38,979 nucleotides of DNA from Escherichia phage LM33_P1. Every line of letters begins with the position of its first letter. Positions within the stretch are counted from its first letter, which is position 1. The stretch is from the sequence record NC_031937.1; one strand, given 5' to 3'. The position numbers were made by a program, and so were the translations under genes. The notes beneath the pieces are model-generated. The model was not told where the DNA came from. It worked only from the letters and a program-made list of their open reading frames with translations, and did not search any database. Shown here piece by piece: positions 10,593-11,196 of the stretch.

Positions 10593-11040
10593 GGTACAGT
10601 TCAATCCACGGTCCCGGACCGACGCTATCTTCGTACACTGTTCGGCTACCAAGCCAGAGATGGACATCGGGGTAGAGACCATCCGTATGTGGCACAAGCA
10701 GCAAGGCTGGCTGGACGTAGGCTACCACTTTATCATCAAGCGCGATGGCACTGTGGAAGAGGGACGCCCGGTCAATGTCGTAGGGTCACACGTTAAGGAC
10801 TGGAACTCACGGTCTGTAGGCGTCTGCCTTGTAGGTGGAATTGACGCTAAGGGCAAGTTTGAAGCTAACTTCACTCCGGCCCAGATGAACTCCCTGCGCA
10901 ACAAGCTGGCTGACCTGAAGGACTTGTATCCTCAGGCAGAAATCAAAGCACATCATGACGTAGCACCAAAGGCGTGTCCAAGTTTCGACTTGCAACGCTG
11001 GCTGTCTACCAATGAACTGGTCACTTCCGACCGAGGCTAA
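10582..11040 (+). CDS. 3.5: N-acetylmuramoyl-L-alanine amidase (T7 lysozyme, RNAP-binding)
   Basis: Strong similarity to T7 gp3.5 (DAIFVHCSATKP, WLDVGYHFIIKRDGTVE, CPSFDL..W....ELVTSDRG). Confidence 0.92.
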   Translation: MVSKVQFNPRSRTDAIFVHCSATKPEMDIGVETIRMWHKQQGWLDVGYHFIIKRDGTVEEGRPVNVVGSHVKDWNSRSVGVCLVGGIDAKGKFEANFTPAQMNSLRNKLADLKDLYPQAEIKAHHDVAPKACPSFDLQRWLSTNELVTSDRG

Positions 11041-11058
11041 ACTATCACCGTAGGGATG
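11036..11058 (+). promoter_or_regulatory. Phage RNAP promoter variant (CTAAACTATCACCGTAGGGATG), followed by 5' stem-loop 11053-11077
   Basis: Consensus match except CG at -4/-3; transcript would start with 10-bp hairpin GGGATGAGAC/GTCTTGTCCC. Confidence 0.55.
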
Positions 11059-11103
11059 AGACCACGAGTCTTGTCCCTTTGTTCGCATTTGAGATTAAGA
11101 AAT

Positions 11104-11182
11104 GTCTCCATAGCTCAAACGGTAGAGCGGCGGGTCGTGATGGCCTATTGCGATTAGGGTTCGAATCCCCGTGGAGACGCCA
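11104..11182 (+). tRNA. tRNA-like element (7-bp acceptor stem, canonical D-arm, T-loop GGTTCGAATCC, encoded CCA; anticodon arm non-canonical)
   Basis: GTCTCCA...TGGAGAC acceptor pairing, D-arm GCTC-AAACGGTA-GAGC, T-arm TAGGG-TTCGAAT-CCCCG, 3' GCCA; 76 nt plus CCA; no well-paired anticodon stem found by hand (candidate loops UCGUGAU or UUGCGAU). Confidence 0.5.
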
Positions 11183-11196
11183 CTAAGGAGTGACCA

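Follow-up and report, generated by a model that had tools for sequence, protein, structure and literature searches.

A tRNA-shaped element in the gene 4 leader of Escherichia phage LM33_P1 is probably a processing handle or tRNA mimic rather than a decoding tRNA

In textbooks, T7-like coliphages exemplify phages that need no transfer RNAs (tRNAs) and that process their messages with RNase III. What, then, is a tRNA-shaped sequence doing immediately ahead of gene 4 in such a phage? The question is raised by the genome of Kayfunavirus LM33_P1 (Escherichia phage LM33_P1, NC_031937.1; 100% identity to OZ035813.1), a T7-like coliphage whose whole stretch of 38,979 nucleotides (nt) we refer to as the window. 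Between gene 3.5, which encodes an amidase, and gene 4, which encodes the primase-helicase, this genome carries a 79-nt tRNA-like element (11104..11182, on the plus strand, as are all features of LM33_P1 described below). An original prediction, made from the letters alone, offered three options for it: a functional tRNA, a tRNA pseudogene, or a tRNA-like signal for RNA processing. Here we present evidence that the element is probably an RNA-processing handle or a tRNA mimic rather than a decoding tRNA. The reading that we favour, at a probability of about 45%, is that it would serve as a cis-acting punctuation mark or stabiliser, a tRNA-derived non-decoding RNA in the gene 4 leader that would be cut by host RNase P.

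The tRNA-like element and its anticodon region

All of the tRNA hallmarks that had been claimed for this locus (acceptor stem, D arm, T loop, and encoded CCA) are present. The element opens with a 7-base-pair (bp) acceptor stem, GTCTCCA/TGGAGAC (11104-11110/11172-11178), followed by a D arm, GCTC-AAACGGTA-GAGC (11113-11128), with a 4-bp stem and G18 and G19 in its loop. The T arm, TAGGG-TTCGAAT-CCCCG (11155-11171), has a 5-bp stem and a UUCRANY loop; its stem contains one U.G pair and a single A x C mismatch, the latter just as the original prediction had it, and a discriminator G (11179) and the encoded CCA (11180-11182) complete the element. These parts were identified by reading the sequence, and the acceptor stem and T arm also by compensatory changes in other copies. 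The nucleotides of the tRNA core and elbow are canonical throughout (U8, A14, G18, G19, A21, G53, U54, U55, C56, A58, C61). ARAGORN calls a tRNA-Thr(cgt) at 11104-11182, and the Rfam tRNA model RF00005 gives it 36.7 bits, above the gathering score of 29 (E = 2.8e-4 across the window), so that two of the checks that had been proposed return a tRNA. This is the only match to RF00005 in the 39 kilobases (kb), and no other Rfam family is above threshold. The score is drawn from the acceptor, D, and T arms, with 21 nt left unaligned where the model has 17, and the element passes the threshold only because the model skips the anticodon arm; the earlier failure to pair a canonical anticodon stem by hand was therefore correct. 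A custom covariance model found no second copy of the element in the window. A chance resemblance to a tRNA is excluded by these scores together with the conservation and covariation described below.

What occupies the place of the anticodon arm can be seen by comparing copies. A query with the 2.5-kb neighbourhood matched 252 phage records, nearly all Kayfunavirus-type, from phages of Escherichia, Salmonella, Klebsiella, Enterobacter, and Citrobacter. The element is found in approximately 32 of them (at least 80% coverage), some 13%, and a divergent copy occurs in Kosakonia phage Kc166A, where RF00005 gives 27.2 bits, below the gathering score. RNAalifold folds the copies into a consensus cloverleaf whose anticodon arm is a 5-bp stem with a 5-nt loop (29-33/39-43 in element numbering), offset by 2 nt from the normal anticodon-arm register. 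In LM33_P1 this hairpin lies at 11130..11151, with the stem at 11132-11136/11142-11146 and the loop, GUGAU, at 11137-11141; two further pairs (11130-11131/11150-11151) may extend it over a 3-nt bulge. The same hairpin appears independently in the lowest-energy folds of the copies from pO91, from contig ERZ1026888 (the ERZ contig), and from Kc166A, extended by two G-C/C-G pairs across the bulge. Within it, the wobble pair U32.G40 becomes U-A in three lineages (SH5, the ERZ contig, and Kc166A), G29.U43 becomes A-U in Kc166A, and C28-G47 becomes U.G in 101120B1-2.

Two other ways of folding the region were tried and rejected. The register behind the ARAGORN Thr(cgt) call contains a G x G mismatch, and since it pairs C28 with G40, it is broken by the recurrent change of G40 to A; in the ERZ variant its energy rises from -23.5 to -17.8 kcal/mol. 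The lowest-energy fold of LM33_P1 itself draws a long, 10-bp hairpin over the anticodon and variable regions. A change of U38 to A in the ERZ contig and Kc166A would break one of its pairs, most of its pairs are not kept in Kc166A, and G40 sits in its loop, so the recurrent change at that position lends it no support. The 5-bp hairpin is preferred by RNAalifold and by the folds of the other variants.

The loop of the 5-bp hairpin differs among copies (GUGAU, AUGAU, GUGAA, UUUAU), and the isotype that ARAGORN assigns flips across them between Thr(cgt), Met(cat), Ser(tga), and Stop(tta), even though the copies compared are 1-5 bases apart, or approximately 15-20% divergent in the case of Kc166A. 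If the region is instead drawn with a 7-nt loop, most copies have G at position 33 and a pyrimidine at position 37. A canonical anticodon arm, with a 5-bp stem, a 7-nt loop, U33, a stable anticodon, and a purine at position 37, was thus not found in these copies.

Could the element nevertheless be a genuine decoding tRNA, reading as Thr-CGU (ARAGORN), as His-GUG (the tRNAscan-based annotations), or as a suppressor? The score above the Rfam threshold and the ARAGORN call speak for it, as does the tRNA-Thr label in some GenBank records, and the pO91 copy can be drawn with U33 and the anticodon UUA. The Thr call, however, depends on the register with the G x G mismatch whose C-G pair is broken in three lineages, the consensus loop has 5 nt, the 7-nt alternative has G33 and a pyrimidine at 37 in most copies, the anticodon would differ among near-identical phages, and the tRNAscan-based annotations themselves say Pseudo. 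The GenBank labels are in fact inconsistent: tRNA-OTHER or tRNA-Pseudo in HC12, tRNA-Thr in U8, tRNA-Pseudo(GTG) in IME278, and none at all in many records. Because the loop sequence varies, the ARAGORN isotype flips, and most copies have G at position 33, decoding is very unlikely, and we give the first of the three original options next to no weight.

Conservation, pairing, and the empty site

The second option, a decaying pseudogene, predicts change at the neutral rate and substitutions that are blind to pairing. As a near-neutral yardstick, we used the third codon positions of genes 3.5 and 4, compared between LM33_P1 and other carriers. Identity at these positions in genes 3.5 and 4, respectively, is 68% and 79% for IME278, whose element is 100% identical (79/79); 67% and 76% for CHRF_30001 and CHRF_30030, with 100% in the element; 67% and 59% for SH5, with 98.7%; and 53% and 57% for Kc166A, with 84.6% over the 65 nt that BLAST aligned. 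For IME278, the CHRF phages, and SH5, 15-25 differences would be expected in the element at the neutral rate and 0-1 are observed, so that at a flanking third-position divergence of 21-41% the element differs by 0-1 in 79 nt. The contrast extends to the adjacent non-coding sequence of the CHRF phages, in which the 52-nt leader is 90% identical and the element 100%. Among all copies identity to LM33_P1 is 97.5-100%, except in pO91 (93.5%) and in the far more divergent Kc166A.

Where the copies do differ, the differences mostly respect the fold. In pO91 the acceptor-stem pair U2-A71 has become C-G by a double change. The T stem of Kc166A shows one G-C changed to A-U and the A x C mismatch changed to A-U, and both partners of its acceptor pair 7-66 have been deleted together; of the eight stem changes in this copy, seven preserve or improve pairing. 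The D arm and T loop are unchanged in all copies, bar two D-loop bases in pO91, and they are untouched in Kc166A despite a heavily diverged spacer just upstream. Over the eight distinct sequences, standard pairs fill 94% of the pair cells, a share that drops to 38-56% if the 3′ partners are displaced by 1-3 columns, and none of 500 shuffles reached the observed covariation score. Four of the six acceptor-stem pairs that appear to have changed on both sides are an artefact, because the MAFFT alignment places Kc166A one column out of register; discounting these, we are left with two double changes and one co-deletion as independent events, besides several one-sided wobble changes. A neutrally decaying pseudogene fits neither the 0-1 differences nor the pairing-friendly changes in the divergent copies, and we set this option aside. 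Where the element is present, comparison of the copies shows its structure to be under selection.

Selection where present does not imply presence everywhere. Phages K1F, 101136BS1, and 6925 lack the element. Two of these are close to LM33_P1: in the portion of the 2.5-kb query that aligned, 101136BS1, a member of the species Kayfunavirus LM33P1 by classification, is 98.9% identical to it and phage 6925 98.3%. Alignment with these empty sites defines an accessory insertion of 88 nt (11100..11187) composed of AAAT, the element, and CTAAG, and bounded by TAAG repeats at 11096-11099 and 11184-11187. The empty site reads GATTAAGGAGTGACCAATG, where LM33_P1 reads GATTAAG-AAAT, the element, and CTAAG-GAGTGACCAATG; the promoter, hairpin, and ribosome-binding site around it are the same as in LM33_P1. 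Since relatives that are approximately 98-99% identical here, one of them of the same species, do without it, the element is dispensable.

Two further points of the original prediction need correction. It had been proposed that the element replaces an RNase III site used elsewhere in the genome; in relatives that lack the element, this spot holds no RNase III-type site and no gene 3.8, and since nothing stands in its place, the element is an addition and not a substitute. It had also been called unusual for T7-type coliphages, which holds in part: most related phages lack it, and yet some 13% of the Kayfunavirus-type records carry it, several annotate it, and one paper mentions it (PMC8402661).

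The same facts lend themselves to a simpler account, in which a tRNA was captured once before gene 4 and then spread, without function, by homologous recombination in the highly conserved sequences that flank it, the promoter and hairpin upstream and the ribosome-binding site and the start of gene 4 downstream; identity between copies would then merely reflect recent spread. The patchy occurrence (about 32 of 252 records), the clean 88-nt indel with its TAAG repeats and its empty sites in phages 98-99% identical, one of the same species, and the position in a known variable spot, where gene 3.7 is present or deleted and an HNH or nucleotidyltransferase gene may be inserted, are all consistent with such a passenger, as is the complete identity even in a loop that is capable of varying. 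The divergent copies are difficult to accommodate, however: that of Kc166A has diverged roughly in step with its genome and kept the fold, with seven of eight stem changes pairing-friendly, including a double change and a co-deletion, and pO91 has its own double change in the acceptor stem. Compact T7-like genomes would also not be expected to keep an unused RNA across such divergence. We therefore regard a functionless passenger as unlikely.

A possible RNase P handle and a possible role in trans

A good substrate of bacterial RNase P has a 12-bp stack of acceptor stem and T arm, an intact elbow, G1-C72, a U at -1, and a 3′ GCCA. The element has a stack of 7 + 5 bp, the T loop UUCGAAU, G18/G19 and with them an intact elbow, G1-C72, U at -1, and GCCA; because it carries these substrate features, a cut at 11103/11104 would be expected. 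It retains more broadly the parts that host tRNA-processing machinery reads, namely the acceptor/T-arm stack, the T loop, the G18/G19 elbow, U8, A14, A21, a purine discriminator, and CCA. In Kc166A the stack is 6 + 5 bp and the end is ACCU. A tRNA-like RNase P signal is thus the best fitting of the three options that had been put forward, the cleavage itself being what we infer.

The transcript in which such a cut would take place can be read from the interval between the two genes, which holds, in order, a promoter-like site, a hairpin, a 25-nt spacer, the element, 14 nt with AAGGAG, and the ATG of gene 4. Both upstream features had been anticipated and both hold up. A promoter core of the K1F type, AACTATCACnnTAGGG, occurs in 11 plus-strand copies in the window against 0.31 expected, and by its match to this repeated core the variant AACTATCACCGTAGGG at 11040..11055 is a promoter for the phage RNA polymerase with its predicted start at G11053; it overlaps the gene 3.5 stop codon (11038-11040). 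It is the sole copy of the core with C at -4 (CG at -4/-3, with TA in nine copies and TG in one). Among relatives the C at -4 is conserved and -3 is variable (G, T, or A). From the predicted start, the transcript would open with a 10-bp hairpin with a 5-nt loop (11053..11077), found in the centroid fold. This leader hairpin is kept in all aligned Kayfunavirus relatives, whether or not they have the element, and its variants differ by a compensatory change from A-U to G-C (GAGAC...GTCTT and GGGAC...GTCCT). An RNase III-type site, an RNA duplex of about 20 bp that is most often interrupted by an internal loop at the cut site, was found neither in the element, which is a cloverleaf, nor in the upstream hairpin, which has only 10-11 bp.

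In the mechanism that we propose, the phage RNA polymerase would transcribe the element after starting at the variant promoter 50 nt before it; transcripts reading through from more distant upstream promoters would presumably include it as well. Host RNase P would then cut at 11103/11104. In promoter-initiated RNA this cut would detach the leader hairpin, and in read-through transcripts it would split the RNA of genes 3.5/3.7 from that of gene 4. The gene 4 message would subsequently be headed by a compact, tRNA-shaped domain with a base-paired 5′ phosphate; alternatively, a tRNA-like RNA of about 79 nt would be released. The outcome would be a tRNA-type punctuation, comparable by analogy to the RNase III sites of T7. 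From the sequence it seems that the element remains part of those molecules that are translated and is not cut out completely, because the gene 4 ribosome-binding site, AAGGAG (11185-11190), starts 2 nt past the CCA; sequence reading and the list of open reading frames (ORFs) place this site and the ATG (11197-11199) together at 11185..11199. The whole distance from the CCA to the ATG is 14 nt (11183-11196), exactly as had been predicted.

Several observations weigh against this reading. With the ribosome-binding site 2 nt after the CCA, full 3′ maturation would endanger the gene 4 message. Approximately 87% of the related phages are without the element, including the 98-99% identical ones and among them the one of the same species, and therefore any benefit in cis must be small or conditional. 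The covariation comes from few independent events among the eight distinct sequences, recent lateral exchange through the conserved flanks may explain part of the extreme identity, and the loop that is capable of varying is also identical in IME278 and the CHRF phages.

A different kind of function is suggested by where the sequence may have come from. The whole element was not found in E. coli genomes, in which only its last 29 nt match, at 89.7%, to tRNA-Glu, and a scan of approximately 100,000 species genomes found no tRNA that combines its acceptor 5′ strand with its D arm. A pattern scan for the T stem and loop, the acceptor 3′ strand, and G73 yielded 53 loci, at which all 48 of the ARAGORN tRNA calls are tRNA-Glu. 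In many proteobacteria tRNA-Glu(UUC) has an acceptor stem (GTCTCCA/TGGAGAC), T arm, G73, and CCA that are identical to those of the element. The D arm is of the common GCTC-AAnnGGTA-GAGC type, unlike the unusual D arm of tRNA-Glu. By sequence, then, the element looks like a tRNA-Glu-type top half joined to a generic D arm. A search for a single bacterial or phage donor tRNA identified none, since the 3′ half is Glu-like and the D arm is not.

RNase P and 3′ trimming might instead release a stable, CCA-ended, tRNA-shaped RNA that works away from its own message, as a dedicated non-decoding mimic acting through its tRNA-Glu-type acceptor end and elbow. A host factor sensing or attacking these parts of a tRNA could be drawn off by such a mimic, acting as a decoy or sponge and so as a sink for an immune or toxin activity; the mimic could be the tRNA partner of a Gp5.5-like protein, together with H-NS; or it could be a primer-like RNA for the primase-helicase and DNA polymerase. 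The parts that are conserved (acceptor stem, G73, CCA, and elbow) are those that recognition in trans would need, with the loop left free, and the match of the top half to proteobacterial tRNA-Glu(UUC) and the presence or absence among close relatives, typical of conditionally useful counter-defence cargo, agree with this. Reportedly the T7 primer-like 3′ end is ACCA, and the element ends in GCCA, which speaks against a primer; the release of a mature RNA would also cost one gene 4 message each time, the CCA being 2 nt from the ribosome-binding site. LM33_P1 does encode a Gp5.5-like protein at 15670-15969 (phrog_1452, host H-NS inhibition; E = 1.8e-31), and in a passage of PMC11506809, which cites Zhu et al. 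2012, T7 gp5.5 is described as forming complexes with tRNA and H-NS, and a host tRNA as able to prime replication. An HNH endonuclease ORF (15344-15658; phrog_1872, E = 5e-28) lies just upstream of the Gp5.5-like gene.

The Kc166A copy ends in CCU, not CCA, and is followed directly by a gene for a small nucleotidyltransferase, which would also suit a released RNA. This 179-amino-acid ORF (1659-2198 of the Kc166A locus) is a minimal class II nucleotidyltransferase of the CCA-adding or poly(A) polymerase type (phrog_1614, E = 1.5e-28; motif LAGGCARD...DWD; a weak PF01743 match), and this enzyme is a known accessory gene product of Autographiviridae (PMC7693777). The gene occurs in 195 T7-like phage records, and no tRNA-like RNA was found within 1.5 kb of it in the five inspected (gh-1, JA10, Sibilus, Stalingrad, and phi80-18) with ARAGORN, Rfam, or the custom model. 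Because these five carriers have no tRNA-like neighbour, the pairing in Kc166A stands as a single case, and a conserved module of tRNA-like RNA plus nucleotidyltransferase is unsupported beyond it. On balance, we consider an action in trans to be improbable.

Genome setting and known systems

Gene 3.5 ends at 11040 and gene 4 spans 11197-12897. Upstream, most carriers of the element keep gene 3.7, which in LM33_P1 has been deleted between two GCTAA repeats: the gene 3.5 stop (GGCTAA, 11035-11040) is fused directly to the promoter. In relatives (1270-1300 and 1495-1510 of locus L002) GCTAA ends both gene 3.5 and gene 3.7, which is why we place the deletion between these two 5-bp repeats. The "hypothetical protein" that appears under some of the database matches is this upstream gene 3.7 and not an ORF across the element, and two small ORFs that do overlap the element (33 and 35 amino acids) were treated as spurious. 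Downstream, the gene that follows depends on the phage, being gene 4 in LM33_P1, an HNH endonuclease gene in SH5, and the nucleotidyltransferase gene in Kc166A, with an identical ribosome-binding block in front of each. In Citrobacter phage SH5 the HNH gene (1363-1728 of locus L072) lies between the element and gene 4 and starts at the ATG that serves gene 4 in LM33_P1; cargo genes have repeatedly been inserted at this spot downstream of the element. Since the downstream gene varies and gene 3.7 is present or deleted, the element is best described as an optional module in a variable spot of the genome.

Pattern scans of IMG/VR and metagenomes for further copies added only ST31 and two new variants. 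In one metagenomic copy (CYGL01000127.1, minus strand, about 5150-5165), the 3′ strand of the T stem is one base short, CCCG in place of CCCCG, which reflects either an assembly error or damage to the copy. An unrelated phage contig (IMGVR_UViG_2703719178_000001, 12353-12430, minus strand), with a terminase nearby and not T7-like here, also contains a sequence shaped like a tRNA, in which the D arm, AGCTCAAACGGTAGAGCG, is identical and the anticodon-type stem carries a 9-nt loop; it scores 34 bits with the custom model and receives no ARAGORN call.

How does the element compare with what is known? With canonical phage tRNAs, such as those of the T4 and T5 clusters, it shares the cloverleaf, the 7-bp acceptor stem, the D arm with G18/G19, the canonical T loop, and the encoded CCA, as well as carriage by a virulent phage, co-transcription with other genes, and the expected processing by host RNase P. 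It differs from them in lacking a 5-bp stem that closes a 7-nt anticodon loop, a conserved U33, a purine 37, and a stable anticodon, and from the T4 and T5 clusters in being a single copy in a T7-like genome of approximately 39 kb, inside the leader of a messenger RNA (mRNA) and 2 nt from a ribosome-binding site.

Closer in kind are tRNA-like processing signals within longer RNAs, examples of which are mitochondrial tRNA punctuation, MALAT1 mascRNA, the tRNA-like structures of plant viruses, and the tRNA-mRNA co-transcripts of the E. coli tufB operon. Here too a tRNA-shaped module is embedded in a longer RNA, enzymes read the acceptor/T-arm half and the elbow, and the anticodon region is free to degenerate. 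Cleavage of those signals is experimentally proven, whereas the LM33_P1 element is known from its sequence; it lies, moreover, upstream of a coding region in a phage-polymerase transcript and is optional among close relatives. The RNase III sites of T7 include R3.8, which lies between genes 3.5 and 4 and hence in the same neighbourhood, and the proposed outcome would be the same, a polycistronic RNA cut into defined messages with structured ends; the element implies a different enzyme and a different RNA shape. Anti-defence phage tRNAs, as described in a passage of PMC11482910, replace host tRNAs that anticodon nucleases have cut; they resemble the element as phage-borne RNAs of tRNA type that vary among related phages, and they differ in keeping a working anticodon loop that is altered just enough to escape cleavage. 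The element has no usable anticodon loop, and only its acceptor and T-arm half is host-like (Glu); for want of that loop, it could act in defence only as a decoy for a factor that reads other parts of a tRNA.

The existence of the element is already known, from databases and, as a pseudo-tRNA, from one paper. A "pseudo-tRNA gene" at this position was noted in Kc166A, DY1, ST31, and LM33_P1 without further analysis (PMC8402661), and this and the annotations in Kayfunavirus records, which include HC12, IME278, and others, concern the same element at the same position. These sources flag a tRNAscan or ARAGORN match, and the fold, the covariation, the conservation relative to the flanks, the boundaries of the indel, and the non-decoding loop are not described there. 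What is new is the evidence that selection maintains a non-decoding fold, together with the exact indel, the presence and absence between close relatives, and the Glu-type top half.

The labels under which this one element appears across records, from tRNA-Thr to tRNA-Pseudo(GTG), tRNA-OTHER, or nothing, are a warning for annotation. LM33_P1 and several other carriers are candidates for phage therapy. Natural pairs with and without the element that are approximately 98-99% identical here, one of them within the species of LM33_P1, make its function directly testable. For the family, a tRNA form that is selected for its shape and does not decode points to the use of host tRNA processing for message punctuation, or to a mimic directed against a host factor; if a trans-acting mimic proved to be the true explanation, the best-studied family of phages would gain a new class of small RNA.

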